A stretch of 64,000 bases of DNA from Firmicutes bacterium CAG:534 (GTDB lineage: Bacteria; Bacillota; Clostridia; Lachnospirales; Lachnospiraceae), in assembly GCA_000436115.1 (NCBI GenBank), contig FR894558.1, forward strand, positions 83,974 to 147,973. Direction: 5' to 3'. The position numbers and the translations under genes are program-made. The notes beneath the pieces were generated by a model that saw only the letters and a list, made by a program, of their open reading frames with translations, was not told where the DNA came from and searched no databases. This document shows, in pieces, positions 17,899 to 49,869 of this stretch. Each line of letters starts with the position of its first letter. Position 1 is the stretch's first letter.

Positions 17899-19107
17899 AT
17901 GACGGCGGAAAGTCTGACCGTTGCGGGGAGGCACTTTCGCACAAAAGCGGATTATGAAGCTGCACTACGCGATCAGAAGAAAATAAACACCATCAAGGCA
18001 CAGACAGACCTGGAAGATCCCGTACAACTTTATGAACTGTATGGCGAGATGCAGAGTGGAATTTACCGGTTTGAAACACTGGTAGGAAATGACTTTGATG
18101 ATGAAATTTATGAAAAAATAGAAAAATTAAAGAAACAGGGCATTACGGCCCAAAATGCAGCCCGTTTTTTTCCCAAGGGAAAAGCGGGGAAAGGGAAAAA
18201 GGGGAAAAAAGAAAAGAAAGCCCATAGATCTGCACAGGGGACAAGCAAACCAAAGAAAAAAGAAATACCGTCTGGAGCCATGGACAAAATCATGGAAGAA
18301 CAGGTGCTTTTAGAACTAAGAAGGCGGGAAAAGCGCAGAAAACTCATTGTCCTGGCAGCTTCCGTGGTGGCGGTAGCAAGCCTTTCCTATTTTGGAGTTT
18401 ATTATTTTGTGGCAGCCAGGAACAATGCAAGCTATGAACAGCTTGCCGCCCTAAAGGGCAGCGATGTTTTAGCAGATGCCAAGGATAAAAATGATTTTGC
18501 GATCCATAAGACCGCAGTTCAGCTCCCGGATGTGCTGGATGAATATAAAACTTTATACGAAAAGAATAAAAAGCTAATCGGATGGCTTAAAATTGACGAT
18601 ACAATAATAGATTACCCTGTTATGCAGACTGGTGACAATTCCTATTACCTGGAACACAATTTCAATCAGGAGTATGACAAGAACGGAAGTCTTTTTCTGG
18701 ATTATAATTGCAGTATTTATCCCCGTTCCACCAATCTGATCATTTACGGGCATCATATGAAATCAGGGCAGATGTTCGGACAGCTTCAAAAGTATGCCAA
18801 GCAGTCTTATGGCGAGAAGCATTCCATCATTACGTTTGACAGTATTTACGAAAAGGCAACCTATCAGGTCATGTATGTATTCCGATCTCAGGTGTACAAT
18901 GAGGATGACCTGGTTTTTAAGTATTATCAGTTCATTGACGCTAATTCCAAAAAGGAATTTGATTCTTACATGAATGAAATGGCGAAAATGAGCCTGTATG
19001 ATACGGGTGTGACAGCAAGCTATGGAGACAGTCTTTTGACCTTGTCTACCTGTGACAATTCACAGACAGACGGAAGGTTTGTTGTAGTAGCAAAGAGAAT
19101 TAAGTAA
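17899..19107 (+). CDS. srtB: class B sortase with about 155-aa cytoplasmic N-terminal extension
   Basis: Catalytic-domain signatures YLEHNFNQEYDKNGSLFLD, IIYGHHM, LTLSTCD (TLxTC Cys) and trailing conserved Arg. Single TM helix at about residues 158-180. Lys-rich N-terminal domain (KGKAGKGKKGKKEKK). Confidence 0.85.
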   Translation: MTAESLTVAGRHFRTKADYEAALRDQKKINTIKAQTDLEDPVQLYELYGEMQSGIYRFETLVGNDFDDEIYEKIEKLKKQGITAQNAARFFPKGKAGKGKKGKKEKKAHRSAQGTSKPKKKEIPSGAMDKIMEEQVLLELRRREKRRKLIVLAASVVAVASLSYFGVYYFVAARNNASYEQLAALKGSDVLADAKDKNDFAIHKTAVQLPDVLDEYKTLYEKNKKLIGWLKIDDTIIDYPVMQTGDNSYYLEHNFNQEYDKNGSLFLDYNCSIYPRSTNLIIYGHHMKSGQMFGQLQKYAKQSYGEKHSIITFDSIYEKATYQVMYVFRSQVYNEDDLVFKYYQFIDANSKKEFDSYMNEMAKMSLYDTGVTASYGDSLLTLSTCDNSQTDGRFVVVAKRIK

Positions 19108-19124
19108 CCAAAGGAGTGTTACAG

Positions 19125-22100
19125 ATGACGAAAACAGCAAAGAAAAATAGAAAGCTGAAAAGACAGGTAAGGAAAACCATTGGAGGCCTTTTTATGGCCT
19201 CTGCTATTGTGATAGCGGCATTACCTGTACAGGATGTCAGTGCAAATCCGGGAGAGGCAGCCAAACCTGCACCGAAGGTCTGGGTATGGGATAGCCAGGG
19301 GAAGAGAACAGGAGATCTGGCAGGAACGCCGGATTCTTCCATAAAGTCCTTCTGCGAGAGCACGATCCCTTATGTGCCGGATGATGCAACGATTTATACC
19401 TCCGGTGACGGAAGATTTCAGTTTGCTTATGTCAATCCGGGGGATGGAGTAAGATCCGCAGTTATCCTGAATTATAATTCTACGGTATTACAGGACAGTA
19501 CGCTTACAATTCCCAATTCTCTGGAGGCGTTCCGGAAATATAAGACAACTCAGACAGAGGGCGGATATTGCCTGGTTACACAAAACGATGAATTTATGTT
19601 TTATGATGTGTACGAACAGGATTATGTGATGGATGGAAGTAGCCAGGTGCTGCTGTATTATGTTCCGGAGATCAAGTATGACACAGACAAGCATCCGGTG
19701 CCTGCAGGTTCAAGCTACAATGTGGGAGAGTCCATGGTTGTCAACAAAAATCAGCTTGTTACCAGAGATGATAAGCTGGTATACATTGATCCCACAGATC
19801 CTTATGAGTATGATGAAAATGGAATTGCAATCGGAGAGAAGCTTTTTGATGTAACGGAGCGTATGGTGACTCACCAGAAGCCCTGCTATTATGAGCAGCG
19901 CTCCATCTGGGGAGATCAGGACGATAATAAGCTGTATTACCAGGTGAAGAAATCTGTCAATGATAATAAGCCAAATGGAGATTTGATCCATCCTACGGAT
20001 AACGACCATTACAGAATTAATGCCAGCGTGAAATATATCGGACAGCAGTTTATTGATACCAATACCGTAGACGGAACCTGGAGCGTGCGCAAAAACGCAT
20101 ATCGTACAGGCCCGGATGACGGCGTGTTTGCTAACAACGCCAACATCACGAACCTGGTCATCGGAGAAAATCTTTCCGGTATCAGCGACTATGCTTTTCA
20201 GGGGTGTGCAACCCTTCAGAGCGTAAGCTTTGGAAACAACCTGTCAACCGTTGGAAATGGCGCCTTTGCAAACTGCATCAGATTATCACAGTGTAATATG
20301 CCTGTGGAATCCAATATCCAGTCGCTTGGAAAGGATGCGTTTTACAACTGTACGGCGCTTACCAGTATTACCCTGCCAATCAACGTGAAAGCCATTGGAG
20401 ATTCCTGCTTTGAGGGATGCACCAGATTACAGACTGTGGACTTATGCGGAGGCAGTGAAGATGAACTGGACACCATGCTTCAGACTATCGGAAATTCTGC
20501 ATTTAAGAATTGCAGTTCTCTGGGCGAGGTTATTTTCCCCAGCCAGTATGCAGAAAGCAATCTGCAGATCGGCGTATTTGAGGGGTGTTCAAATTTACAG
20601 CGTGTAAAAGTACCAAACAGCAATATGGATTTTACAGATGATACATCCTTCACCTTTGAGACGTTTAAGGATACAGTGCCGGAAAGCTTTTATTTCTGGG
20701 GAGCAGATACCAAGACGGATGACAGAATTGGCAGATCTGCTTTGCATGTAACGGCGAATGAGGAAGAAATTGCTTATAAATACTGGGATAAGGAAGTGTA
20801 CGAGGTTGTGATCTCGGAAGCGGCAACAGGAGCCTCTATCACCTATCAGGTAAATGACCGAAACGAACTGACCAAGATCTGGATCGAGGGAAATCCTGAA
20901 AATGTGGAAATTCCCAAACGGATCGGACCTTATGGAATATCAACTATAGGAACCGGCTGCTTCGACAATGCGTGTACCATTAAGCGTGTTACGATCCCGG
21001 AAACGGTTGCAAATATTGCAGACGGCGCATTTAAGGGAACCCACAATCTGAAAACCGTGATCTTCAGCAATGCGTCAACCATCCAGAGCATCGGAACGGA
21101 TGCGTTCCGCACACAGGTTGTATCCTGCGGGGATAAAATTACGGAAGAAGATCCTGAGCTTACCTTTGTAGGGGCTATGATCAATGACGCCGGGACAGAT
21201 ACAGTACCGTTCATCTACGCCATGACGCCGGAAAACATGATCAACAATCCGGATCAAAATAAGGCATGGATTACCTGTCACAGTGGCTGGCCTACCAATC
21301 TGGAAGTAAAATATAATTATGATTACACAACCGAAGAGGGCGGCGCAGAACTGGAAAGCTATCCCAGATATGATAACTTTACGGATGCCATTACAGATGC
21401 AAGCGGTAATATTACAGGCTTTAAATCCAACAGGGGCAAGATAGAGGCCTATGTGGCGCAGCTTCCCTATGTGAATACTTCGGATGATACGGAAGAAACC
21501 TATCTTGCTGATGTGATCCAGGAAGCGATTGACCGCTGCGAAAAGAATGATCCTGCCAACCTTCCTACAGAAAAGATGCTTGAGCTTGTAAATGCATCCA
21601 AAAATGTAGTGGTGCCTACCAACGTAGATATGCTGAAAAAGGGACTCTTTTCCGGTTATACATATAAAACAGACAGTAACGGAGAGCCTATTGTACCTGA
21701 AGAAGCAGAGGTTGTTGGAACAGAAGGACCAGACACCTATATTAACTCGATTACTTTAAATGGTGTGAATACCATTGATCCGTTTACCTTTACCGGATGC
21801 AGTAATCTTCAAAGTGCAGCGATTATCGGGGCCACAGAGCTGGGCGATTATGCTTTTGGCTGTCTGGAAGAGCTGGACGGTATCACCGGAGTGATTAATT
21901 CAACCAGTGAAAATTGTGAAAATCTTTCCAGCGTTACCTTAGGCCCTAATATTGCAACGGTAGGAATGAGGCCGTTCAGAGGCTGCGATAAGCTCACCAA
22001 CATAGAATGCCTTGGCAGTAATCTGGCATATCAAAACGGTATTTTATATGATTTGAACAATGGTAAAAAGACCATTGCGGAATGTCTGCCCGGAAGAGGA

Positions 22101-24089
22101 ATTAACGTAGGCTCCTATACCGTCGGGCCGGAGGAATTTGACGGGGTAACAGATGTTCTGCCGGAAGCATTTATGGATTGTGATGAGATCGGTAAGGTTG
22201 ATCTGTCCACCACAACGGTAGATACCATACCGGACAGATGCTTTATGGATACGAAAATCCTGACCTCGGTTGTCCTTCCGGATACCGTCAAAAATATTGA
22301 GAAGGATGCCTTTAAAAACAGCGGTCTTAAGCTGTTAACAATCCCTGGAAATCAGGCGTATATTGAAAAAGATGCCTTTGAAAGCAGTCCTCAGCAGACG
22401 ATTAACTTTGAATGTGTTGAGGGAACCACAGCGGACAGATATGCCAAGGAATATGACTATATTAATCCGGAATACGGAAAGGTTTATCTGACCCACACCG
22501 TAACCTTCTGGGACTACCCGGATTACCCGGATATTACAAGCAAGGCTGTATACTATACCACCAAGGTAAAGGACGGAGAGGACGCTGTTCCGCCTACTAC
22601 GCCTCCTTCCCATGACGGAGTTGCCTTCAGCAGATGGACAGACTATACCAACATTTCCAAGGATACAGATGTGTGGCCGATTTTTGGATCCAACATCTAT
22701 GCGGTTTCCTTTATGGATTATGATGGAACACTGATCGGAGAGGTACAGTATATTGAGGAAGGCAAGAGCGCAACGCCTCCTGCCAACCCTACAAGAGAAG
22801 GCTATACCTTTGATAAGTGGTCTCAGGACTGGAACAATGTCACAGAAGACAGAACGATCATTGCGCTTTATATAGATAATTCCAGTGACGCCAGCAGGCA
22901 CACGGTTATCTTTTACGATTATGACGGAAAGACCATTTTAAGCCAGCAGTCCGTAAATGACGGAGAAGCGGCAGTAGAGCCCAAGTCGCCTACCAGAGCC
23001 GGTTATACTTTCCTGGGATGGGTGCCTTCGGACTTCTCAAAGGTCACAAAGGATATGAATATTGTGGCAAATTATGAGAAGGAAGGAAGCGGTACTTCCT
23101 CCAGCGCAAACCCTTCCGGCAGTGGCAGCAACAATGGAAACAATAATGGAAATAACGGCAATGGCAGCAATGCTTCTCCCACCCCCACATCAGCTCCTGG
23201 CGCAAACGGCAGTGATGTGAAGAAGTACACCGTATCGGTATCGGGCGGAAGCGGAAGCGGCAGCTATGCAGCAGGTGCAGTGGTAGCGATCAATGCATAC
23301 TTTATGGGAGAAGGACAGGTCTTTGATAAGTGGACTTCTTCTACAGCGGGAGTTGGCTTTGCAAATCCCAATGCGTCCTCCACAACCTTTACCATGCCTG
23401 CAGCAAATGTGGCCATTACAGCAACCTATAAGACAGGAAGCGGCAGCGCCAATGCAAATGCTGCAAATGGAGGCAGTTCCGCCTCTGGACAGAATGGATC
23501 AAGCTCAAGCAGCAACGGAACCAAGGTAGAGATTACCAGACCGGGTATTTCCAATACAGGACTTGCAGGTGCAACCGTAAGCGGTGCAACAGATAACTTT
23601 ATTGTAAAGATCACAGAGGATCAGGCAGCAACGGATGCGGTGATTGCAGCGCTTCAGGCAGAATACGGAGATATCAGCAGACTGAAATATCTGCCTATGG
23701 ATATCAGTCTGTATGACTCCACCGGCAGAACCAAGATCGCTGATACCTCAGGGATCAGTGTGAACTTAACACTGCCGCTTCCGGATGATCTGATCCAGTA
23801 TGCAGGCAATAATATGGCCGCAGCGGTTAATAAAGGACAATTAGAGAAGCTAAATGCCAGATTTACAACAGTAGACGGAGTACCGTGCATTAACTTTACT
23901 GCTACGCATTTTTCACCTTATGTGATCTATGTAGATACAGCAAACCTGACGCAGGCGACCATTGATGCCACACCGAAGACCGGTGATCCCATTCATCCTA
24001 AGTGGTTTTTGGCAACAGGACTTGCATGTATTTCCCTGATTTTGTTCTTTAAGAGGGACAAGAAGGTGTTACCCGTTAAAACGGCTTAG
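19125..24089 (+). CDS. cell-wall-anchored surface protein: signal peptide, BspA-type leucine-rich repeats, Listeria-Bacteroides (Flg_new) repeats, G/S/N linker, C-terminal TPKTGD sorting signal
   Basis: About 1654 aa. Start at ATG 19125 (AAGGAG 8 nt upstream). Repeated IGxxAFxxCxxLxxVxxP LRR units. GYTFxxW...IxALY repeats. C-terminus ...ATPKTGDPIHPKWFLATGLACISLILFFKRDKK (motif, hydrophobic segment, basic tail). Confidence 0.85.
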   Translation: MTKTAKKNRKLKRQVRKTIGGLFMASAIVIAALPVQDVSANPGEAAKPAPKVWVWDSQGKRTGDLAGTPDSSIKSFCESTIPYVPDDATIYTSGDGRFQFAYVNPGDGVRSAVILNYNSTVLQDSTLTIPNSLEAFRKYKTTQTEGGYCLVTQNDEFMFYDVYEQDYVMDGSSQVLLYYVPEIKYDTDKHPVPAGSSYNVGESMVVNKNQLVTRDDKLVYIDPTDPYEYDENGIAIGEKLFDVTERMVTHQKPCYYEQRSIWGDQDDNKLYYQVKKSVNDNKPNGDLIHPTDNDHYRINASVKYIGQQFIDTNTVDGTWSVRKNAYRTGPDDGVFANNANITNLVIGENLSGISDYAFQGCATLQSVSFGNNLSTVGNGAFANCIRLSQCNMPVESNIQSLGKDAFYNCTALTSITLPINVKAIGDSCFEGCTRLQTVDLCGGSEDELDTMLQTIGNSAFKNCSSLGEVIFPSQYAESNLQIGVFEGCSNLQRVKVPNSNMDFTDDTSFTFETFKDTVPESFYFWGADTKTDDRIGRSALHVTANEEEIAYKYWDKEVYEVVISEAATGASITYQVNDRNELTKIWIEGNPENVEIPKRIGPYGISTIGTGCFDNACTIKRVTIPETVANIADGAFKGTHNLKTVIFSNASTIQSIGTDAFRTQVVSCGDKITEEDPELTFVGAMINDAGTDTVPFIYAMTPENMINNPDQNKAWITCHSGWPTNLEVKYNYDYTTEEGGAELESYPRYDNFTDAITDASGNITGFKSNRGKIEAYVAQLPYVNTSDDTEETYLADVIQEAIDRCEKNDPANLPTEKMLELVNASKNVVVPTNVDMLKKGLFSGYTYKTDSNGEPIVPEEAEVVGTEGPDTYINSITLNGVNTIDPFTFTGCSNLQSAAIIGATELGDYAFGCLEELDGITGVINSTSENCENLSSVTLGPNIATVGMRPFRGCDKLTNIECLGSNLAYQNGILYDLNNGKKTIAECLPGRGINVGSYTVGPEEFDGVTDVLPEAFMDCDEIGKVDLSTTTVDTIPDRCFMDTKILTSVVLPDTVKNIEKDAFKNSGLKLLTIPGNQAYIEKDAFESSPQQTINFECVEGTTADRYAKEYDYINPEYGKVYLTHTVTFWDYPDYPDITSKAVYYTTKVKDGEDAVPPTTPPSHDGVAFSRWTDYTNISKDTDVWPIFGSNIYAVSFMDYDGTLIGEVQYIEEGKSATPPANPTREGYTFDKWSQDWNNVTEDRTIIALYIDNSSDASRHTVIFYDYDGKTILSQQSVNDGEAAVEPKSPTRAGYTFLGWVPSDFSKVTKDMNIVANYEKEGSGTSSSANPSGSGSNNGNNNGNNGNGSNASPTPTSAPGANGSDVKKYTVSVSGGSGSGSYAAGAVVAINAYFMGEGQVFDKWTSSTAGVGFANPNASSTTFTMPAANVAITATYKTGSGSANANAANGGSSASGQNGSSSSSNGTKVEITRPGISNTGLAGATVSGATDNFIVKITEDQAATDAVIAALQAEYGDISRLKYLPMDISLYDSTGRTKIADTSGISVNLTLPLPDDLIQYAGNNMAAAVNKGQLEKLNARFTTVDGVPCINFTATHFSPYVIYVDTANLTQATIDATPKTGDPIHPKWFLATGLACISLILFFKRDKKVLPVKTA

Positions 24090-24098
24090 GAGTATTCC

Positions 24099-26846
24099 AT
24101 GAATAGAAAAATTGCAAAAACCCTGAGTATTCTGCTGGCGCTTACGGCGCTGGCAGTTACCCAGGTACCTGTGTCAGATGCGGAAGCAAGCGCTGTCGCA
24201 TCTGATTTTGAAATGGAAGGAAGTAAGCTACTCAAATATACAGGCACGGCGGAAGTCGTGTCTATTCCTGATAGCATTAAAGTGATCGGCGAGGAAGCGT
24301 TTGCGGGAAATGAAGATCTGATCAAAGTAACGGTAGCGGGAGATGTAGAGGAGATCGGTTATCGTGCCTTTGCAGGCTGTGATAATCTGCGGACCATAGA
24401 ACTGGGGGATGGAGTGAAAACGCTTGATACGGCGGCTTTTGCCAATGACGGCGAGCTGGTGAACGTGACCCTGGGCGCAGGAGTGAAGGATCTGGGAACC
24501 GGAGTATTTGCAGGCTGCGGGCAGTTAAAGGAGCTGCAGGTTTCAGAGGATAATCCCTATCTGCATTATTCCAATGGCGTGTTGTATGATGATGAAGAAA
24601 CCATTTTGTATGCAGTGATGCCGGGAGCCATGAAGGGGGCGTATACCCTGCCTTCAACGGTAAAAGAGATCAAGGGCTATGCCTTCTGGGGAAACCCTTA
24701 TCTGGAAGAGCTGACGCTGGGAAGCGGGCTTTCGGAGGTTCCTGCCTATGCGTTTTCAAATTGCAGTAATTTAAAGAATGTTTATATTCCACTTCCGGTA
24801 AGAGGAATTGGTGCCAAGGCATTTGAGGATTGTGTAAACCTGGAAAAGGTTACATTACCGGATTCCATGGCGAATATCAGTGACAGCGCCTTTGACGGCT
24901 GTCCCAATGTGAGCTTTGATGCGACGCTTGGAACCTACAGCGGCGATTTTGCAGCGGCCTTCCAGAAGTCGGATGTAGAGGAAGTAGAATACGAAGAAGT
25001 GCAGGATTCACAGGTGATCGATCCTGCGCAGATTACAAATGATACGTCAGATCAGGCACCTGCAAATGATCAGACCACGCCTCAGGAAGAAAATGCGCCC
25101 CAGACGGGAAATCCATCTCCGTCTCCAACCATAGGAGTAGAGACCACCACGGTGAATAACCTGACGATCCTTGGCCAGTCCAGTATTGTATCCGGCAGAG
25201 CCGTGATCTTTATTGATAACAGGCAGGCTTCTGTTATGTCAGGAGGACAGACGGCGAACGGAACTGCGTCACAGAGTGGGAAAATAGATCTGTCAGGAGA
25301 GGAGCAGCCCGTAACTACGCAGGAAGGAAACGAAGCAAGGGATCTTCTGGTGGATAATGCACAGAAGGGAAAGGATTTTCCTAAATATACTGTAGCAGGA
25401 GATAAGATTGCCAGCCAGGCTTTTTATCAGCAGGCGGACATGACAGATTATGAGATCCCGGAGGGAATAACAGAGATCGGAGAGTTTGCCTTTGCCCGGA
25501 GTGGATTAAAGAAAGTGATTATCCCAGAAGGCGTGACAACCATTGATTATGGTGCGTTTTATCATTGCGATCAGCTGACAGAGGTGCAGATTCCATCCAG
25601 TATATCTAAAATAGATGCCCATGCATTTGATAATACGCCCTGGCTTTCCAAACAGCTTGCAGGCAGTTCCTATGTGATCGTAGGAGATGGAATTCTGCTT
25701 GCTTATGGAGGAACAGACAGTGTTGTAAATATTCCAGGCGGCGTGAAGCAGATCGGACCTCAGGTCTTTAAGGACCATATGGGAATTACGGCAGTGAATA
25801 TACCGGACACCGTAGAAGTGATCGGAGAGGAAGCCTTTATGGGCTGCAGAAATCTGAAAACAGTAAACGGCGGTAAAAATCTGACAGCCATTGAGGATCG
25901 GGCTTTTAAAAACTGTCCTCTTTCCAGTGTGACTATTCCGGCTTCTGTAAAGTCGGTAGGACTGGAGGCATATGAAATTCCGGGAGGAACAGATACCGTA
26001 GTATTTGAGGGAACGGAGCTGCCCGTATTGATGATGGGGAACAGCGCAAAAAGACTGGCAAACAAGCAGGAGCGCGGCTATGCGTTTTCTCCTGTTAAAA
26101 ATGCGGTGGTGCCGGAGGGAGTAACGGATCTGACAGGAACGGTGCTGGAAAGCGGAAAATATGGTTTCGCAGGAACGGTAATTACACCCTCGGGGACGGT
26201 TGTAGCCGATAATACGGCAGGCGTACAGACCGTACAGGATGCCGGGGTATCGGTTGTGATTGACAGCGCTTCCCTTACAAAGGATGAAAATACACAGGCA
26301 CAGCTTGCCGGTGAAAACGGCAGCTTTGTACTGAAAATAAAGGACAGCGAGGATGCTGCCGCCCAAATAGCAGAGGCATATGGGGAATTGTACGGTGGAA
26401 AGGTACCGGATCATTTGCTGGCATATGATATTTCCCTGTATGATAATTCTCAAACGATCCCCATAACGAAGCTGGGAAAACAGACAGCGACCATACAGCT
26501 CAGCATTCCGGATGGAATATCACCGGAAAAAATGCATGTGGTGACTTTGGATCAGGACGGACAGCTTGAAGCAGTGCAGTTCAGATTACTGGAGCTTTCC
26601 GGGAAACCCTGTGTACAATTTACTACAAACCATTTTTCACCTTATGGGATTTATACCTATTCGGACTTAAACGGACAGGCCGTTGTGACAAATGGAAAGG
26701 CTGTGATCACAGATCTTTCCGGCAATAAGGATGATACTCCTGATACAGGGGATCCCATACATCCCAAGTGGTTTTTGGCGATTGGACTTCTTGCAGGAGC
26801 AGTAGCGCTTTTCTTTTACAAAGGGAAAAGAAAAGGAATTTCATAA
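24099..26846 (+). CDS. second cell-wall-anchored BspA-type LRR surface protein with C-terminal TPDTGD sorting signal (paralog of upstream gene)
   Basis: 915 aa. Signal peptide MNRKIAKTLSILLALTALAVTQVPVSDAEA. LRR units. C-terminal about 150 aa alignable with the upstream protein. Ends ...DTPDTGDPIHPKWFLAIGLLAGAVALFFYKGKRKGIS. AGGAG RBS. Confidence 0.85.
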   Translation: MNRKIAKTLSILLALTALAVTQVPVSDAEASAVASDFEMEGSKLLKYTGTAEVVSIPDSIKVIGEEAFAGNEDLIKVTVAGDVEEIGYRAFAGCDNLRTIELGDGVKTLDTAAFANDGELVNVTLGAGVKDLGTGVFAGCGQLKELQVSEDNPYLHYSNGVLYDDEETILYAVMPGAMKGAYTLPSTVKEIKGYAFWGNPYLEELTLGSGLSEVPAYAFSNCSNLKNVYIPLPVRGIGAKAFEDCVNLEKVTLPDSMANISDSAFDGCPNVSFDATLGTYSGDFAAAFQKSDVEEVEYEEVQDSQVIDPAQITNDTSDQAPANDQTTPQEENAPQTGNPSPSPTIGVETTTVNNLTILGQSSIVSGRAVIFIDNRQASVMSGGQTANGTASQSGKIDLSGEEQPVTTQEGNEARDLLVDNAQKGKDFPKYTVAGDKIASQAFYQQADMTDYEIPEGITEIGEFAFARSGLKKVIIPEGVTTIDYGAFYHCDQLTEVQIPSSISKIDAHAFDNTPWLSKQLAGSSYVIVGDGILLAYGGTDSVVNIPGGVKQIGPQVFKDHMGITAVNIPDTVEVIGEEAFMGCRNLKTVNGGKNLTAIEDRAFKNCPLSSVTIPASVKSVGLEAYEIPGGTDTVVFEGTELPVLMMGNSAKRLANKQERGYAFSPVKNAVVPEGVTDLTGTVLESGKYGFAGTVITPSGTVVADNTAGVQTVQDAGVSVVIDSASLTKDENTQAQLAGENGSFVLKIKDSEDAAAQIAEAYGELYGGKVPDHLLAYDISLYDNSQTIPITKLGKQTATIQLSIPDGISPEKMHVVTLDQDGQLEAVQFRLLELSGKPCVQFTTNHFSPYGIYTYSDLNGQAVVTNGKAVITDLSGNKDDTPDTGDPIHPKWFLAIGLLAGAVALFFYKGKRKGIS

Positions 26847-26863
26847 AGAGAGAACTGAGTAGA

Positions 26864-26904
26864 AACTCCCGGCATATGATAAGAAAAAGGCCGGGAGTTT
26901 TTTT
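26864..26904 (+). terminator. intrinsic terminator ending the sortase/surface-protein operon
   Basis: AACTCCCGGC-16nt-GCCGGGAGTT stem followed by TTTTTT, 18 nt after the stop at 26846. Confidence 0.65.
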
Positions 26905-27828
26905 ATGCTTCGGGTAAGACGGCAAATAGGCTGCAGCGATGAACTGCTGGATACCTGCAGGGGATCAGGAGTGACGGTTGCTATGTTAGACACCGGAGTG
27001 GCTCCCCATCCGGATTTTGAAAACAGAGTGATCGCCTTTGCAGATTTTGTGAATGAAAGAAGGACCCGGTACGATGACAGCGGGCATGGAACCCATGTTG
27101 CCGGGTGTTTGTGCGGCAGTGGACGTGTATCAAGGGGGCGCTATAAGGGAATTGCGCCTGACAGTCTTCTGGTGGTGGGAAAGGTTCTTGATTATAAGGG
27201 GGACGGAATATTAGAGAGCATGCTCCGCGGAATGGAGTGGATCCTTGGAATACAAAACAGATACAATATCCGCATTTTAAATATCTCTATTGGAATGGGA
27301 AGCGCACCTAATCAGGATAAAATGATGCAGCTCCTGTCGCTGGTGGATGAGGCGTGGAAACAGGGGATCACAGTAGTATGTGCAGCAGGAAATATGGGGC
27401 CAAAGCCCATGAGCCTGTCGCCGTTGGGACAACGGGAGCAGGTGATTACGGTGGGGTGCCATGAGGGAGGATATTTTGGAAACCGAAAAGGACTGTGCGA
27501 GGATTATTCCAGCAGGGGACCAAGCCCCTATGCAATGAAAAAACCGGATATTGTGGCGCCGGGAACAGAGATTATTTCCTGCAGCTCAGGGATCAGGCTG
27601 AAAGGGCGTTGTTACCAGAATGCTTATGCAGCCAAGAGCGGGACCTCCATGGCAACGCCTATCGTATCGGGAGGTGCGGCGCTGCTATTGCAGAAAAATC
27701 CGGCCCTGTCGAATGAAGAGGTAAAAAGGAAGCTGCTGCATACGGCGCATGATCTGGGAGAACCATGGAATAAGCAGGGATGGGGAATGATTGATATAAA
27801 AAAACTGCTGGAAAACGCAGGGGGATAA
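26905..27828 (+). CDS. subtilisin-like serine protease (peptidase S8), no signal peptide
   Basis: Catalytic triad blocks VAMLDTGV (Asp), HGTHVAGC (His), GTSMATPIVSGGAALL (Ser). 307 aa, no hydrophobic N-terminus. ATG 26905 is the first start after an in-frame stop at 26860 and has no SD. Confidence 0.8.
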   Translation: MLRVRRQIGCSDELLDTCRGSGVTVAMLDTGVAPHPDFENRVIAFADFVNERRTRYDDSGHGTHVAGCLCGSGRVSRGRYKGIAPDSLLVVGKVLDYKGDGILESMLRGMEWILGIQNRYNIRILNISIGMGSAPNQDKMMQLLSLVDEAWKQGITVVCAAGNMGPKPMSLSPLGQREQVITVGCHEGGYFGNRKGLCEDYSSRGPSPYAMKKPDIVAPGTEIISCSSGIRLKGRCYQNAYAAKSGTSMATPIVSGGAALLLQKNPALSNEEVKRKLLHTAHDLGEPWNKQGWGMIDIKKLLENAGG

Positions 27829-27837
27829 AAAAGGTCA

Positions 27838-27866
27838 TTGACAGAAGTTGTTCTATTGTATACAAT
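27838..27866 (+). promoter_or_regulatory. promoter with overlapping GntR/FadR-type palindromic operator
   Basis: TTGACA (27838-27843), 17-nt spacer, TACAAT (27861-27866). Perfect palindrome TTGTATACAA (27856-27865) straddles the -10. Matches the generic GntR-family (t.GT...AC.a) operator consensus. A GntR/FCD regulator is encoded in the operon. Confidence 0.5.
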
Positions 27867-27916
27867 TATACACAATAACAGCGTTAAAAAGGGAAAACAG
27901 AGGGAGGAAATGAATC

Positions 27917-29329
27917 ATGGCTGATGATAATGATCTTTTTTTAGACAGACCGGTTTCACTGAACACGAAGAACAACCTGCTTGAGATTGAAGAGCATATG
28001 TACATATTGGATGATGTCAAAAAGCCCAATGTGTTCCGGAATATGTTCCCTTATTCTGAGGTGCCAAAGATACCGTTCAATGACAGGATCGTGCCGCATA
28101 ATATGCCCAAGGATATCTGGATCACGGACACCACTTTTCGTGATGGACAGCAGTCGAGAGCGCCCTATACCACAGAGCAGATCGTCAAAATTTACGATTA
28201 CCTGCACAGACTGGGCGGGCCAAACGGAATGATCCGCGCCAGCGAATTTTTTCTGTACAGCAAAAAGGACAGAGATGCCGTTTACAAATGTATGGAGAGG
28301 GGCTATGATTTTCCACAGGTTACCAGCTGGATCCGGGCAAGCAAGGAGGATTTCAAGCTTGTCAAGGAAATCGGAATGCCGGAAACCGGAATTTTGGTAA
28401 GCTGTTCTGATTATCATATTTTCTTGAAACTGAAAATGACCAGAAAACAGGCCATGGAACATTATCTGAGCGTGGTTCGGGACTGCCTGGAAGAGGGGAT
28501 CAGCGTCAGATGCCATCTGGAGGATATTACCAGAGCCGACATTTATGGTTATGTAGTGCCTTTCTGCCTGGAACTGATGAAGCTGATGGAAGAGTATAAG
28601 ATCCCTATCAAGGTAAGAGCTTGCGATACTATGGGATATGGTGTAAACTACCCTGGTGCGGTTATTCCAAGAAGTGTTCAGGGAATTATTTATGCGATCC
28701 ACACCCATGCAGGAGTTCCCCATGAGCTGATTGAGTGGCACGGACATAATGATTTTTACAAAGCTGTGGTCAATTCTACAACGGCATGGCTGTATGGCTG
28801 CTCCGGCGTCAATACTTCTTTATTTGGCATCGGAGAAAGAACCGGAAATACGCCGCTTGAGGCAATGGTATTTGAGTATGCACAGCTGAAAGGGGATCTG
28901 AACGGAATGGACACCACCGTGATCACCGAGCTTGCAGAATACTATGAGAAGGAGATCGGATATCATATTCCGGAGAGAACTCCCTTTGTAGGAAAGAATT
29001 TCAATGTGACCAGAGCCGGAATTCATGCAGACGGCCTCTTAAAGAATGAGGAGATCTACAATATTTTTGATACGGACAAATTCTTAAACAGACCGGTTCT
29101 GTGCGCCGTATCCAATACCTCCGGGCTGGCAGGAATTGCACACTGGATCAATACCTATTTTAAGCTGAAGGAGGACAAGCAGCTTGATAAATCAAGTCCT
29201 CTCGTAGCAGAACTGAAAAAATGGGTAGATAAACAGTATGAGGACGGACGTGTGACCGTAATCACGGATAAGGAATTAATTGAGCAGATAGCGATCGTCT
29301 GCAAAAAACTGGATATGACCATAGGGTAA
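27917..29329 (+). CDS. DRE-TIM metallolyase family synthase (homocitrate/2-isopropylmalate synthase-like; candidate Re-citrate synthase)
   Basis: 470 aa. DTTFRDGQQ signature of the IPMS/homocitrate synthase/citramalate synthase family, and HxH metal site region. Sits in an operon with GntR and isocitrate dehydrogenase. Confidence 0.75.
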   Translation: MADDNDLFLDRPVSLNTKNNLLEIEEHMYILDDVKKPNVFRNMFPYSEVPKIPFNDRIVPHNMPKDIWITDTTFRDGQQSRAPYTTEQIVKIYDYLHRLGGPNGMIRASEFFLYSKKDRDAVYKCMERGYDFPQVTSWIRASKEDFKLVKEIGMPETGILVSCSDYHIFLKLKMTRKQAMEHYLSVVRDCLEEGISVRCHLEDITRADIYGYVVPFCLELMKLMEEYKIPIKVRACDTMGYGVNYPGAVIPRSVQGIIYAIHTHAGVPHELIEWHGHNDFYKAVVNSTTAWLYGCSGVNTSLFGIGERTGNTPLEAMVFEYAQLKGDLNGMDTTVITELAEYYEKEIGYHIPERTPFVGKNFNVTRAGIHADGLLKNEEIYNIFDTDKFLNRPVLCAVSNTSGLAGIAHWINTYFKLKEDKQLDKSSPLVAELKKWVDKQYEDGRVTVITDKELIEQIAIVCKKLDMTIG

Positions 29330-29355
29330 TCCGGTATTTTGGAAAGAAGGAAAAA

Positions 29356-30075
29356 ATGAGTAAATATGATTTAAAGCAGGAGGTAACAGATAAATACTCC
29401 CTGCGGGGCAGAGTGTTCCACAAGTTGAGAGAGGACATTCTGAACGGAAGGTACAAGGAACATGAGGAACTGAAGGAGGTAGCCATCGGAGAAGAGCTTG
29501 GCGTCAGCAGGACGCCGGTCAGGGAGGCTTTCAGGCAGCTTGAACTGGAAGGACTGATCCAGATCATTCCCAATAAAGGAGCATATGTGACCGGTATCAC
29601 AGCAAAGGATGTGAAGGATATTTATATGATCAGATCCTCGCTTGAGGGAATGTGCGCAAGGCTTGCTACAGAACATATCACGCCGGAACAGCTTGAGGAG
29701 CTGGAGGAGAACGTTTATCTTGCAAGCTTTCATGCTTCTAAGGGCCATATGGAACAGATGGCGGAGCTTGACAATCGTTTTCATGACATCCTGTACGCAG
29801 CCTGCGATTCCAAAATGCTTGAAAATCTGCTTCAGGATTTCCACCAGTATGTGATCCGGATCAGGAAAAAAACACTTTCTACAAGAGAAAGAGGAATTGC
29901 ATCCAATGAAGAGCACAGACGGATCATGGAAGCGATCAGGGATGGAAAAGCGCAGGAGGCTGAGAAGGCAGCAACACAGCATATGATCAATGCTTATGAT
30001 AATATCGTAAAGAATGGATTATACGATATTTTAAAAGAAGAGGAAAGGACGGAGGAAAGAATTGGACAAGATTAA
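29356..30075 (+). CDS. GntR-family transcriptional regulator, FadR/FCD subfamily
   Basis: N-terminal winged HTH ([33 protein letters not shown]) and C-terminal all-helical FCD domain. 239 aa. Confidence 0.85.
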
Positions 30076-31270
30076 AATGCAGACTCCCCTGGTGGAGATG
30101 GATGGAGATGAAATGACCAGAATTCTCTGGAAGATGATAAAGGATGAGCTTCTCCTTCCATTTATAGATTTAAAAACGGAATACTATGATCTGGGACTGG
30201 AACACAGAAATGAAACCAATGACCAGGTAACAGTGGACAGCGCCAATGCAACCCTGAAGTACGGAGTGGCAGTAAAATGTGCGACCATTACTCCTAACGC
30301 AGCCAGAATGACAGAGTACAATCTGAAGGAAATGTGGAAAAGCCCCAACGGAACCATCAGAGCCATTCTGGATGGAACTGTATTCAGAGCGCCCATTCTG
30401 GTAAACGGGATCGTACCTTATGTAAAGAACTGGACGAAACCCATTACCATTGCCCGTCATGCTTATGGGGATGTTTATAAGAATGCAGAAATGAAGATCC
30501 CGGGAAAGGGCAGGGCAGAACTGGTCTTTACAGCAGAGGACGGAACACAGACAAGAGAGCTGATCCATGACTTTGACGGAGCAGGGATCATCCAGGGAAT
30601 CCACAACACTGAAAAGTCTATTTCCAGCTTTGCAAGAGCCTGCTTTAGCTATGCGGTAGACACCAGGCAGGATCTGTGGTTTTCCACAAAGGATACGATT
30701 TCCAAGAAGTATGACCATACCTTTAAGGACATTTTCCAGGAGATCTACGAAAAGGAATATAAGGAAAAATTTGAGAAGCTTGGGATCGAGTATTTCTATA
30801 CGTTGATTGATGATGCCGTAGCGAGAGTGATCCGTTCAGAAGGCGGATTTATCTGGGCATGTAAAAACTATGATGGAGATGTGATGTCAGATATGGTGGC
30901 AACCGCATATGGAGATCTGTCCATGATGACCTCTGTTCTGGTATCCCCCAACGGTGTTTATGAGTATGAAGCGGCGCATGGAACCGTACAGCGCCACTAT
31001 TATAAGCACCTGAAGGGAGAGGAGACTTCTACCAACTCCATTGCTACGATCTTTGCATGGACAGGGGCGCTTAGAAAGCGCGGAGAGCTGGATCAGAACG
31101 CAGCGCTCATGCAGTTTGCGGATAAACTGGAAAAAGCCTGCATCAAGACCGTTGAAGACGGCAAGATGACAAAGAGCCTGTCTTTGATTTCCACCTGTGA
31201 GCATCCGGTAATCTTAAACAGTCTTGAGTTTATTCAGGCCATCAGGGAAACACTGGAGAGCCTTATGTAG
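30062..31270 (+). CDS. icd: NADP-dependent isocitrate dehydrogenase, subfamily II (eukaryotic-type homodimeric)
   Basis: [56 protein letters not shown] blocks align residue-for-residue with IDH1/IDH2-type enzymes. TTG start 30062 has GGAGG 7 nt upstream (alternative ATG 30077). Overlaps GntR stop. Confidence 0.9.
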
Positions 31271-33176
31271 CATCTGCCAGAGCTTCCCATTGTTCATACA
31301 GACCTTCGAGCTTGTCAGCCAGTTCTTTTTGACGGCTGGCAAGCTTTTGTAATTCAGCCACATTGGTAGCAATGGAGGGATCTGACATTTTTGCGTCGAT
31401 TTCCTTTTGCTCCTGTTCCAGGAGGGCAATGGATTCCTCGCATTTTTTCAGATCGTTTTCCTTTTTCCGCTTATCGGCCTGAAGCTTTTTCTGCGCCTGC
31501 CAGTCCAGCTTTGTCTCAGTCGGAAGGTATTCCTTCTGAGAGGGAGAGGCAGGGAGTGTGGAAAGGGAAGCTTCCGTTTTCTTTTCCAGGTAATAATCGT
31601 AATTTCCGAGATAACCGGTCAGAGCGCCCTCTGAAAGCTCCAGGATCCTGCTGGCAGTCCGGTTGATGAAGTAACGGTCATGGGAAACATAAAGAACTGT
31701 GCCCTCATAAGCGTTGATGGCGTCCTCCAGGATTTCCTTAGAAGTAATATCAAGGTGGTTTGTGGGCTCGTCCAGGATCAGAAAATTGGATTCGGAAAGC
31801 ATGAGTTTGGCAAGGGAAACACGGCCGCGCTCGCCACCGCTTAAATCCTTTATCCGCTTAAACACATCCTCGCCGGTAAAAAGAAAAGCGGCAAGAGTGC
31901 TGCGGATTTCCGTATTATCCAGATAAGGATAGGAATCCGATATTTCATCAAACAAGGTTTTCTCTGGATGCAGCACATGATGCTCCTGATCATAGTAGCC
32001 GATATGGACGTTAGTGCCAAGGGTAAGCGTTCCTGTGTCGGCAGGAAGCAGGCCGTTGATGATCTTTAAGATCGTTGTTTTGCCGGTGCCATTATCGCCG
32101 ATAATGGCAACATGCTCGCCACGCTTTAAATCCATGGAGAGGTGCTTAAAGAGCAGATGCTCCCCAAAGGACTTGGAAAGATCTTCGATATGCAGAACAT
32201 CATTTCCACTGGTGCATCTGGGAGTCAGGGTTATGTGGATATCGCTTCTTGTCTGGGTGGGTTTATCCAAAACATCCATTTTGTTTAAAGCTTTTTCGCG
32301 GCTTTCAGCCCGTTTAATGGATTTTTCACGGTTAAAGGAACGGAGCTTTTCAATGACTTCCTCCTGGTGCTTTATTTCCTGCTGTTGTTTCAGATATGCG
32401 TTTAATGCGGCAGAACGAAGCTGTTCCTTTTTGACGGCATAGTCAGAATAATTTCCAAGGAAGGTGGTTGCCTTTGTCTGATCGATTTCGATGATCTTTC
32501 CGGCAATGCGGTCAAGGAAATAGCGGTCATGGGAAACAATGAGGACAGCGCCTTTATAATTCAGGAGATAGGTTTCCAGCCAGGCAATGGAATTAAGATC
32601 CAGGTGGTTGGTGGGCTCATCCAGGATGATCAGATCCGGTTTTTGCAAAAGAAGTTTTCCAAGCGCAACACGGGTCTTTTGTCCTCCGGAAAGGGTGGAG
32701 ATCTTTTTGGAAAATTCTTCTTCCGTAAAGCCAAGTCCTTTTAAAATGCCGGTTACTTCACTTTGATAGGCGTAACCGTTGGCCAGCTCAAAGGAATGGG
32801 TCAGACGGGTGTAGGTTTCCATCAGTTTTTCCAGCTCCCTGCCGGATGTCTGTTTCATGGCCAGCTCCAGAGAACGGATGCGGCTTTCCATTTCGATCAC
32901 ATCTGATTTGGCGGTAAGGAGTTCTTCATAGATGGTGTTCTGACTGCTTACAGCCTGATCCTGTGCCAGATAACCGATGGTTTTATCCTTTGACAGGGTT
33001 ACCAGGCCGTGATCCGAAGCTATTTCGCCTACGATAATACGCAGAAGCGTTGTCTTTCCGGCGCCGTTCAGGCCGACAATGGCGGCTTTATCGTAGTCCT
33101 CCAGGTGAAAGGACACCTCTTTTAAAACAGGAACCTCGTTAAATGCTTTTGAAATATTTTGACATGATAAGATCAT
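31263..33176 (-). CDS. ABC-F family ATPase (two ABC domains, C-terminal coiled coil; Uup/YdiF-like)
   Basis: Two Walker A sites ([18 protein letters not shown]), two LSGG signatures, inter-domain linker and Lys/Glu-rich C-terminal coiled coil. Start set at ATG 33176 (AGGAAG RBS), not 33248. Confidence 0.85.
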
Positions 33177-33313
33177 TGATGTTTCTTCCTTATTTTTATT
33201 ATATTCTGTATTCCGTTTCAGTTTACAGAGGATAAAAGGGAATGTCAATGAATTGACATTATTTTAACATTGTTATATATTTAACTTATATCAAAAAACA
33301 GGGGGCATTCCAA

Positions 33314-33955
33314 ATGGAACAAAAGGAAATTTCACAGGCAGTTATTGGGCGTCTGCCGAGATATTTCAGATATTTGGGTGAACTGAAGGATGAGGGGATT
33401 GAACGGATTTCATCGCAGGAGCTTTCCGACATTATGAAGGTGACGGCATCCCAGATCCGGCAGGATTTTAATAATTTTGGAGGCTTCGGACAACAGGGAT
33501 ATGGCTACAAGGTAGAGTACCTTTATCAGGAGATCGGCAAGATCCTGGGTCTTGACAAAACCCATCATCTTATTATCATCGGAGCAGGCAATTTAGGCCA
33601 GGCCCTTGCCAATTATATGAATTTTGAAAGAAGAGGATTTCTTTTTAAGGGGATTTTTGATAATAACCCTGCGCTGTTTGGGAAAAAGATCCGGAATTTG
33701 GAAGTGAAGCCCATGGATGAGCTTGAGCAGTTTGTAAGAGAAAATAATATTGATATTGCGGTGCTGACTATACCAAAGAACAGCGCCATCCAGGTGGCGG
33801 AGCGGCTTGCCGCCAATGGGATCAAGGGTATCTGGAATTTTGCCCATGTGGATTTGAATGTGCCGCAGGAGATCCAGGTAGAGAATGTTCATTTGTCAGA
33901 CAGCCTGATGAAGCTTACTTATAATATCAATTGTTTTGGGCAGGGAGGTGACTGA
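33314..33955 (+). CDS. rex: redox-sensing transcriptional repressor Rex
   Basis: IGRLPRYFRYL winged-helix start and IIGAGNLGQALANY Rossmann NADH-sensing domain. 213 aa. Confidence 0.9.
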   Translation: MEQKEISQAVIGRLPRYFRYLGELKDEGIERISSQELSDIMKVTASQIRQDFNNFGGFGQQGYGYKVEYLYQEIGKILGLDKTHHLIIIGAGNLGQALANYMNFERRGFLFKGIFDNNPALFGKKIRNLEVKPMDELEQFVRENNIDIAVLTIPKNSAIQVAERLAANGIKGIWNFAHVDLNVPQEIQVENVHLSDSLMKLTYNINCFGQGGD

Positions 33956-44925: not shown

Positions 44926-46602
44926 GTGATTATGAAATCAGACATTCAAATTGCACAGGAAGCTGCGATGCTGCCGATCACACAGGTGGCGGAGAAACTG
45001 AACATTTCAGCGGATGAGCTGGAGCTTTACGGAAAATATAAAGCAAAGCTTTCCGATGAGTATTTGAAGCAGATTTCCCAAAATCCCGATGGGAAACTGA
45101 TCCTGGTTACGGCGATCAATCCAACACCTGCCGGAGAAGGAAAGACTACCACAACGGTAGGACTTGGACAGGCCTTCGGCAGACTTTCCAAAAAAGCGAT
45201 CATTGCCCTGCGGGAGCCTTCCCTGGGCCCCTGCTTTGGAATAAAAGGAGGAGCAGCCGGAGGCGGCTATGCGCAGGTAGTTCCTATGGAGGATCTGAAC
45301 CTTCATTTTACAGGAGATTTTCATGCGATTACCTCTGCAAATAACCTTCTTGCAGCCCTTTTGGACAATCATATCCAGCAGGGAAACGAACTGGGGATAG
45401 ATACCAGGTCGGTGGTATGGAAACGTTGCCTTGATATGAATGACAGGGTTCTCAGAAATATTGTAGTGGGTCTTGGGGCAAAAACGGACGGAACGGTCAG
45501 AGAAGACCATTTCGTGATCACAGTTGCCTCGGAGATCATGGCGGTTCTCTGCCTTTCTGATGATATGCAGGATCTGAAAAAACGTCTTGGTAAAATGGTA
45601 GTGGCATACAACTACAGCGGAGAGCCTGTAACGGCTGCAGATCTGAATGCAGTAGGAGCAATGGCAGCCCTTTTGAAGGACGCACTGAAACCAAACCTGA
45701 TTCAGACCCTGGAGCATACGCCGGCACTTGTCCACGGAGGCCCCTTTGCCAATATTGCCCATGGGTGCAATTCTGTAAGGGCAACCAAGGCGGCTTTAAA
45801 GATGGCGGATTATGTGATCACCGAGGCAGGCTTTGGAGCAGATCTGGGAGCAGAAAAGTTCTTTGATATCAAGTGCAGGATGTCAGGGCTGAAACCGGAC
45901 GCCGTTGTTTTGGTTGCAACCATAAGAGCGCTGAAATATAATGGAGGAGTTCTGAGGACAGAGCTTTCCACAGAAAATATGGATGCCCTCAAAAAAGGAA
46001 TTGTAAATCTGGAAAAGCATATAGAAAATCTTCAGAAATTTGGGGTGCCTGTAGTGGTAACCTTAAACAGCTTTCTGACGGATACTCCCGCTGAAACCGC
46101 TTATGTAAAGCAGTTCTGTGAGGAGCGGGGCTGTGAGTTTGCACTTTCCGAAGTTTGGGAAAAGGGCGGAGAAGGCGGAATTGCCTTAGCGGAAAAGGTG
46201 CTTTTTACCCTGGAGAACAAACAGAGCAATTTCCGGGTTCTTTATGGGGAGGAGGCGTCCCTGGAAGAAAAGATCGAAACCATTGCACGGGAGATTTACG
46301 GGGCAAAGGGAGTAAACTATTCTTCACAGGCGAAAAAGCAGCTTGCTAAGCTTTCCGAGCTTGGCTTTGGAACGCTTCCTGTCTGCATGGCAAAAACCCA
46401 GTATTCCCTTTCGGATGATCCGGCACTTTTGGGAAGACCGGAAAATTTTGAGATCAGTGTAAGAGAAGCATATGTATCAGCAGGAGCGGGCTTCGTGGTT
46501 GTTTTGACAGGAACGGTCATGACCATGCCGGGACTGCCCAAAAAGCCTGCGGCTTACAACATAGATGTAGAGGAAAACGGAAAGATCACAGGGCTTTTTT
46601 AA
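44926..46602 (+). CDS. fhs: formate--tetrahydrofolate ligase
   Basis: 558 aa. [16 protein letters not shown]-loop and conserved FTHFS blocks. Confidence 0.9.
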
Positions 46603-49839: not shown

Positions 49840-49869
49840 GGAATTGAAAAGGATAAAGGAGCAGATAAA

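Follow-up and report, generated by a model that had tools for sequence, protein, structure and literature searches.

A putative autoregulatory GntR operator over the promoter of a Re-citrate synthase operon and a candidate 2-oxoglutarate regulon in Clostridia

This study concerns a 64-kb stretch of contig FR894558.1 of Firmicutes bacterium CAG:534 (the window, in whose positions coordinates are given) and, within it, an operon predicted to encode a Re-citrate synthase (Re-CS), a GntR regulator of the FCD type and an NADP-isocitrate dehydrogenase (NADP-IDH). A 22-bp palindrome lies across the promoter of this operon, is conserved in related species that carry the regulator gene, and recurs in metagenomic DNA in front of other genes of the oxidative branch of the tricarboxylic acid (TCA) cycle. 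We propose, at a probability of roughly 0.8, that the FCD-GntR protein is an autoregulated repressor acting over the -10 box and start site of an oxidative-TCA-branch regulon for 2-oxoglutarate synthesis. A preliminary description of the same DNA had read the operon in this way; its interpretation is supported, and its main claims hold and are extended by comparative data to a regulon. The promoter and genes are as follows.

27838-27843, + strand: -35 box TTGACA, found at a constant 6-nt distance ahead of the operator in 68-70 of the 71 species-level sites
27850-27871, no strand: 22-bp palindromic putative operator GTTCTATTGTATACAATTATAC (consensus GTATnATTGTATACAATnATAC), from a position weight matrix (PWM) and the 71-site comparison
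27855-27866, no strand: perfect 12-bp core palindrome ATTGTATACAAT, enclosing the 10-mer TTGTATACAA at 27856-27865
27861-27866, + strand: -10 box TACAAT, the right half of the core palindrome, from reading the sequence and a promoter scan
27872-27874, + strand: predicted transcription start, 6-8 nt past the -10 box, placed by promoter geometry
27900-27907, + strand: ribosome-binding site GAGGGAGG, read from the sequence, in an unstructured leader of ~44 nt
27917-29329, + strand: predicted Re-CS of the Clostridium kluyveri type, EC 2.3.3.3, 470 aa, PF00682 (HMGL-like)
29356-30075, + strand: GntR regulator, FCD-type (FadR subfamily), 239 aa, PF00392 and PF07729
30062-31270, + strand: NADP-IDH, eukaryotic homodimer type, 402 aa, NF006156 and TIGR00127

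A TTGACA-17-TACAAT promoter overlapped by the palindrome TTGTATACAA had been reported in the preliminary description, and both are present. The promoter is the top match in 26500-33500, agreeing at 11 of 12 positions, and its hexamers, its 17-nt spacing and the overlap of the palindrome with the -10 box and predicted start are those of a sigma-70/sigma-A promoter overlapped by an operator. Where the palindrome had been taken to be that operator, its core and position stand but its length does not, the operator being 22 bp, not 10 bp, and spanning the promoter spacer, -10 box and discriminator. The window copy departs from the consensus GTATnATTGTATACAATnATAC at two positions of the left outer half-site and has a PWM score of 29.2 (median of the 71 sites, 32.3); a match to the 71-species 22-bp consensus at two mismatches is expected by chance 0.01 times per window. 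Taken by itself, the 10-mer has no statistical significance in 64 kb: 1.5 occurrences are expected at up to one mismatch, and one or more turn up in 79 of 100 shuffles. It is because the site is conserved between species that we regard it as real. No RNA element was found in the ~44-nt leader, which gave neither an Rfam match nor a fold (z = 0.40), and a leader element was thus ruled out as an explanation. The sequence TATACACAATAACA just past the operator (27867-27880) pairs imperfectly, at 79%, with 27849-27862, and its opposite strand reads as a third ATTGTGTA half-site that is not kept in other species; the pairing is probably due to chance.

The species comparison was based on a scan with the synthase, taking one genome per species, which gave 80 loci with 78-94% identity; almost every title names Lachnospiraceae or a genus within that family. 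In most loci the genes run in the order Re-CS, GntR (FCD), NADP-IDH; in L062 and L066 another dehydrogenase of the Iso_dh family (387 aa) stands between synthase and regulator, and in about 10 loci the Re-CS and IDH genes occur without a regulator. Upstream regions were aligned by anchoring on the 12-mer, and the 71 resulting species-level sites gave the consensus TTGACA-N6-GTATnATTGTATACAATnATAC. Information content is 1.1-2.0 bits per position over the -35 box and the 22-bp palindrome (1.35-2.0 bits in the core) and ~0 bits at the remaining intergenic positions, and therefore relatedness of the species cannot explain the signal. At the positions equivalent to the predicted start, purines are enriched.

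It could be argued that a strong promoter gave rise to the palindrome as a by-product, that is, a TACAAT -10 box with a chance mirror image and no operator function, since the -10 hexamer makes up half of the palindrome and the 10-mer lacks significance in the window alone. However, ATTGTA, which is the left half, and the flanking GTAT/ATAC lie outside the promoter hexamers and are nevertheless conserved to the same extent as the -10 box, at 1.1-2.0 bits across the 71 species. The non-promoter half is also lost exactly where the regulator gene is absent while the promoter stays, and the full 22-mer recurs before non-homologous TCA-branch genes. We therefore consider a by-product extremely improbable and retain the reading as an operator.

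The palindrome and the regulator gene occur together. All 68 GntR-containing loci have the operator (69 counting L059, where the regulator gene begins on the final base of the Re-CS match). The GntR-less loci number 11-12, and 10 of them are without the operator while one, L065 (Konateibacter), holds a degraded relic, ATTGGATACAAT, with one mismatch and its flanks gone. The association gives a Fisher p of 4e-11 for species-level loci that are mutually related. GntR-less loci keep a TTGACA-like -35 box and a TACAAT or TAAAAT -10 box at 17-nt spacing; their spacer and downstream bases are unrelated, and the non-promoter (spacer) half of the palindrome and its flanks are lost. These loci separate constraint on the promoter from constraint on the putative operator, and with them the earlier assignment of the palindrome to the embedded GntR gains its comparative basis. 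GntR-less Re-CS-IDH loci with this pattern include the following.

Upstream of Re-CS: L050 (~1860-1920), L064, L065, L071, L080 (~7930-8000)

The 239-aa regulator has a winged helix-turn-helix (HTH) domain (PF00392, residues 18-78) and an FCD domain (PF07729, residues 88-210), as expected from its description as an FCD-type GntR protein. Its sequence is identical to CDD46029.1 [Firmicutes bacterium CAG:534]. It reaches no equivalog cut-off in NCBIfam, its second-best match there being NanR at 73 bits, below cut-off, and it has no close solved relative in the PDB (best 7xp0, 78 bits). We compared 125 operator-associated regulators, down to 29% identity. Conservation among these is 95% or more for the HTH segment VSRTPxREA and for R93, E97, G98, D139, F142, H143, H163, R170, R179, E186, H187 and H209. 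At the sequence level H143, H187 and H209 (spacing 44 and 22) match the FCD metal triad, which in TM0439 is His134/His174/His196 (PMC4746285). Furthermore, the spacing of R93, H143, H187 and H209 is that of R97, N147, H191 and H213 in CitO, which needs R97 and H191 to bind citrate in its metal-dependent manner (PMC4746285); the residues are thus presumably equivalent, as judged from spacing rather than direct alignment.

The preliminary description had also likened the palindrome to GntR/FadR-family operators, and the core TTGT-AT-ACAA does fit the TKGT/ACMA boxes of the FadR-subfamily operator, whose form is NyGTNxACNy (PMC4494728). In the window operator the GT and AC are 2 nt apart, whereas the commonest spacing in the subfamily is 3, and the outer GTAT/ATAC, 8 bp from the inner repeats, bring the operator to its full 22 bp. 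FadR, PdhR, LldR, GlcC and B. subtilis GntR likewise combine a winged HTH and an FCD domain with a metal His triad and TTGT..ACAA operator boxes; their targets are catabolic pathways, while the target here is the anabolic TCA branch. The B. subtilis gnt operator presumably shares the core TTGTATACAA, but a literature search gave no confirmation, and searches for TTGTATACAA and CTTGTATACAAG returned cloning-vector papers or nothing. The survey of the subfamily took in only one clostridial FadR-type factor (PMC4494728). E. coli NanR, also an FCD-GntR protein, has a (GGTATA)3 repeat operator on which several dimers are bound (PMC8012715); its GTATA-type repeats ~8-9 bp apart resemble the window operator, but they are direct repeats, and those of the window operator are in perfect inverted arrangement.

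Could the operator instead be read by another regulator encoded elsewhere, global or paralogous, with the embedded GntR serving some other target? Operons with the operator and without a GntR gene in the retrieved DNA (L195, L111, L186, L147 and L199) would fit such a case, as would GntR paralogues, 29-31% identical, that adjoin identical operators (L085, L087 and L135). Against this, the co-occurrence of operator and embedded GntR is perfect in the species set picked by Re-CS, the core fits the GntR/FadR-subfamily consensus, and the HTH segment VSRTPxREA is counted as invariant in all 125 associated regulators. Nor is there a second site for the GntR protein in the window or within +/-8 kb of the 80 loci. 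A separate regulator is accordingly quite unlikely in our judgement, and the embedded GntR remains the preferred reader of the site. In the three paralogue loci, L085 (539-1286), L087 (277-949) and L135 (2142-2867), the 22-bp operator is perfect and no TCA gene was recognised in these short contigs; the L085 operator has extended arms (ctctcGTAT...ATACgagag).

A search for further sites had been proposed with the preliminary description. By PWM scan no second site was found in the window or in the 80 related loci (+/-8 kb, 1.25 Mb). We also made an operator-first search by scanning metagenomes for the exact 22-mer, which returned at least 120 loci, and Re-CS adjoins the operator in 97 of the 120 matches listed. 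Altogether 189 sites were classified, at least 94 being Re-CS-GntR-IDH and at least ~16 Re-CS-GntR-aconitase(-IDH), plus variants. The statement that aconitase is not in the cluster is therefore correct for this operon but not for the ~16 related metagenomic orthologous operons that do contain it. Where Re-CS was missing, the downstream genes were classified by Pfam scan and included Si-citrate synthase (Si-CS), aconitase and IDH.

L195 and L111: operator, then aconitase, IDH (333-335 aa) and Si-type citrate synthase (PF00285)
L116: operator, then aconitase, GntR (51% identical) and Si-CS
L186: operator, then Si-CS and aconitase
L129: operator, then GntR (44% identical) and Si-CS
L191: operator, then IDH and GntR (41% identical)
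L083 and L146: operator, then GntR, IDH and Si-CS
L199 (1233-2601): operator, then aspartate aminotransferase; no recognisable -35
L147 (9330-12724): operator, then asparagine synthase and CTP synthase; same TTGACA-N6 geometry

The operator thus tracks the pathway, namely citrate synthase, aconitase and IDH, over non-orthologous enzymes. The L186 citrate synthase falls in a 90%-identity cluster with proteins of Pseudobacteroides cellulosolvens, which belongs to the Oscillospiraceae according to NCBI. With aspartate aminotransferase (AspAT, L199) and asparagine synthase (AsnB, L147) the regulon may extend to nitrogen-linked genes; each was observed once, and the AspAT site is tentative because it has no -35.

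The 470-aa protein matches PF00682 over residues 68-340 (E = 1.9e-33) and had been described as a Re-citrate synthase. Reference sequences for this enzyme were machine-read from the PDF of Table S1 of PMC12016533, and the identities to them are slightly underestimated for that reason.

C. thermocellum homologue: 66% identity to the 470-aa protein
C. kluyveri CKL_0973, a purified Re-citrate synthase: 61% identity
C. acetobutylicum CAC0970: 57% identity
S. aciditrophicus SYN_02536, characterised: 54% identity
NifV, LeuA and the second Re-CS clade: 24-29% identity

CKL_0973 and SYN_02536 belong to the same DRE-TIM (HMGL-like) family and clade as the 470-aa protein, with 61% and 54% identity over ~420-440 residues and the motifs DTTFRDG and EWHGHNDF in common; for the 470-aa protein, activity and stereochemistry are predicted, and its gene heads a GntR/IDH operon. 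The phylogeny suggested with the preliminary description, run as a neighbour-joining tree, places the protein inside the kluyveri-type Re-CS clade, apart from NifV and LeuA. A second Re-CS clade, represented by C. difficile AksA, HM1_2993, Teth514_0415 (Thermoanaerobacter) and Dehalococcoides, shares the reaction and the superfamily, but it is only 27-29% identical to the 470-aa protein and branches with NifV and LeuA (PMC12016533). The two Re-CS clades are only ~28% identical to each other, and the Heliomicrobium gene of the second is apparently isolated in its genome (PMC12016533). As for pathway context, an IDH gene belongs to the operon both in the window and at 94 loci, and ~16 operons include aconitase as well. 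In C. acetobutylicum we take the arrangement to be CAC0970-aconitase-IDH without a regulator.

The protein might alternatively be a homocitrate, isopropylmalate or citramalate synthase, as its relatives are annotated in databases. Its close homologues are named '2-isopropylmalate synthase' in source records (P0041, P0047, P0093 and P0101, 86-88% identical, carry this NCBI name), its top NCBIfam models are nifV and LEU1, and in the PDB it comes closest to homocitrate and isopropylmalate synthases, with 85 bits or less. However, it falls under every cut-off of the NifV, LeuA and CimA models, and far under them (e.g. nifV, 147 bits against 463), and 54-66% identity to four kluyveri-type Re-CS, two of them known, isolated enzymes, compares with 24-28% to NifV and LeuA. 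Taken with its place in the tree inside the Re-CS clade, and with the joining of the gene to IDH and aconitase in operons at at least ~190 loci, this makes another synthase activity very unlikely, and the comparison supports a predicted kluyveri-type Re-citrate synthase. The name '2-isopropylmalate synthase' for members of the clade is a misannotation, and a systematic one, because no NCBIfam model reaches its cut-off for this Re-CS clade.

Neither Si-citrate synthase nor aconitase is encoded within the 64-kb window. The reading as Re-CS has no need of the premise that Si-CS is absent. In L006 (Anaerobutyricum) a Si-type citrate synthase lies at 467-1837, ~6 kb upstream of the Re-CS-GntR-IDH operon; it shares 58% identity with that of L116 and has no operator in front. 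Catenibacillus carries both enzymes (PMC11170127). Since the two can coexist, a canonical gltA, which the preliminary description would have counted against Re-CS, is not a valid objection. An apparent LeuCD-like split aconitase at 57583-59290 was ruled out, the second of the two open reading frames (ORFs) being YbeY and the first having no family match; PhoH and YqfD lie just upstream of the pair.

With these identities, the operon content given earlier (a DRE-TIM synthase, an FCD-type GntR and a eukaryotic-type NADP-IDH) is borne out by domain or equivalog models for all three ORFs, the NADP-IDH scoring 672 bits against NF006156 (cut-off 335) and 559 bits against TIGR00127 (cut-off 397). The GntR gene starts 26 nt past the Re-CS stop, and the IDH gene starts with TTG, 6 nt past GGAGG, in a 14-nt overlap with the GntR stop; co-transcription and translational coupling of the three genes are therefore likely.

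We propose the following mechanism. A sigma-A-type promoter would drive both enzymes and the regulator encoded between them. Re-citrate synthase, the first enzyme of the oxidative TCA branch, would form citrate from acetyl-CoA and oxaloacetate, and NADP-IDH, the third, would convert isocitrate to 2-oxoglutarate and NADPH. The FCD-GntR protein would bind the 22-bp palindrome GTATnATTGTATACAATnATAC and, because the operator fills the spacer, holds the -10 box and ends at the predicted start, the bound protein would exclude RNA polymerase. Since the regulator gene sits inside the operon that it would repress, negative autoregulation is expected. A small pathway carboxylate at the FCD metal site probably alters the affinity for DNA, with citrate or isocitrate as candidate inducers, or 2-oxoglutarate as the candidate effector. 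In other Clostridia the same pair of operator and regulator would control the equivalent genes, whichever enzyme family serves. Because Re- and Si-citrate synthase, aconitase and three IDH families are all found under the operator, the target would be a regulon dedicated to 2-oxoglutarate, the precursor of glutamate.

As to the signal, one possible arrangement, though short of probable, is that citrate or isocitrate induces by releasing the repressor, which would then be the functional counterpart of CcpC. Release on ligand binding is the rule for most FCD repressors, and CitO is an FCD regulator that binds citrate through its metal, Arg97 and His191, the equivalent residues being invariant here. 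Those residues are, however, general FCD features, citrate is a candidate ligand, and a product that induces the first enzyme amounts to positive feedback. It is somewhat unlikely that 2-oxoglutarate, or a linked nitrogen-status metabolite, is sensed instead, giving end-product control of the branch. In favour of such control, 2-oxoglutarate is the endpoint of the regulon, alpha-keto acids chelate divalent metals, and the operator sites at AspAT and AsnB concern enzymes that exchange with the pools of 2-oxoglutarate, glutamate, oxaloacetate and aspartate. Those two sites are single observations, though, corepressor-type FCD regulators are uncommon, and 2-oxoglutarate too is a candidate ligand only.

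Two known systems help to place the proposed repressor. CcpC of Bacillus and CcpE of Staphylococcus are citrate-responsive LysR-type regulators of citZ and citB, and they likewise represent a dedicated factor for the citrate synthase, aconitase and IDH genes in Firmicutes. They have other operators and no homology to the window regulator, which shows only GntR and FCD domains and not a LysR-type HTH with a substrate-binding domain; the likeness is functional only. CitO of Enterococcus faecalis is, like the protein here, an FCD regulator of citrate-related genes, but it activates citrate-fermentation operons from an upstream site at -41 to -74 (PMC4746285). In contrast, the window operon has its site over the -10 box and predicted start, a repressor position, and not upstream of the -35 box as in CitO-type activation, and its genes would synthesise citrate, not degrade it.

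Several points weigh against the proposal of an autoregulated repressor. Binding, repression, start site and effector are deduced from sequence alone, and autoregulation is likewise a deduction. The window's own left outer half-site is degenerate, with TTC in place of TAT, and the Fisher test overstates independence because the species are related. Furthermore, the metagenomic loci were chosen by the exact 22-mer, so that they are informative on neighbouring genes only and not on conservation of the operator. At this database size one or two chance 20-base matches are possible, and L199 is without a recognisable -35. L195, L111 and L186 are operator-bearing operons without a regulator gene in the retrieved DNA, and the status of Si-citrate synthase and aconitase is established for the 64-kb window only.

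In 14 of the 71 sites the palindrome continues 4-25 bp past the 22-mer.

Extended palindromes, at ~7900-8000 per locus: L008, L019, L022, L024, L025, L027, L035, L036, L038, L041, L046, L061, L072 and L076

When arms were permuted between species, 0.9 extended palindromes were expected, with a maximum of 6 in 2000 permutations. The arms are species-specific, complementary and GC-rich (59% against 34-35%). In L076 they form a perfect 68-bp palindrome with the -35 box duplicated on the other strand and no divergent gene; such a gene was ruled out, the upstream gene being co-oriented. An mRNA hairpin made from this promoter is excluded because transcription is predicted to start downstream of the left arm. 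The extensions possibly reflect co-evolution of peripheral contacts, insulation by a hairpin or cruciform, or template-switch mutation.

The operon is bounded by two genes.

26905-27828, + strand: S8 subtilase gene, co-oriented upstream boundary; best match a mycosin-like model, below cut-off
31263-33248, - strand: convergent ABC-F ATPase gene, downstream boundary; its stop overlaps the IDH stop by 8 nt (31263-31270)

The subtilase gene is not kept beside the operon in other species, and the upstream flanks of the 71 sites carry ~0 bits. It ends a cluster at 17899-27828 that also encodes a sortase-domain protein (17899-19107) and two very large BspA-type proteins with leucine-rich repeats (19116-26846, 1657 and 915 aa), and that looks like a cell-surface protein and processing module. 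The convergent ABC-F neighbour is also present in L064 and L076, and no credible intrinsic terminator was found after IDH. Elsewhere in the window, 48958-51255 codes first for a PyrK-like Fe-S protein of 293 aa and then for a GltD-like protein, which exceeds the cut-off of TIGR01316 ('NADPH-dependent glutamate synthase') with 590 bits against 472. We take the pair to resemble NADPH oxidoreductases of the NfnAB/SudAB type, and together with the NADP-IDH it may have a bearing on the NADPH balance. A formate-tetrahydrofolate ligase (PF01268, 932 bits) at 44926-46602, an ordinary gene of one-carbon metabolism, adjoins FtsK.

Searches of the literature for a GntR protein linked to citrate synthase, aconitase, IDH, Clostridia or Lachnospiraceae returned nothing relevant. 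The target set of this regulon is not described in the literature searched, while a kluyveri-type Re-CS and an FCD-GntR protein with a canonical operator are known kinds. The control of the only route of these anaerobes to 2-oxoglutarate and the carbon skeleton of glutamate is a gap in that literature, and what we describe provides a predicted regulon together with a defined operator and regulator. The Lachnospiraceae rank among the most abundant bacteria of the human gut, and the exact regulator sequence was seen on 708 contigs. The comparison also offers a rule for re-annotating proteins of the Re-CS clade that are named '2-isopropylmalate synthase'. In a wider reading, which we put forward tentatively and at slightly under even odds, the FCD-GntR protein would be a dedicated sensor and regulator of 2-oxoglutarate synthesis across Clostridia, with a constant operator, swapped enzymes and a nitrogen-linked reach, and with the palindrome arms as a layer of DNA structure or insulation. 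Its scope would take in at least the Lachnospiraceae and Oscillospiraceae-type lineages, where it would be the non-homologous counterpart of CcpC and CcpE. The putative regulon would then be a clear case of a regulon conserved while non-orthologous enzymes displaced one another within it.

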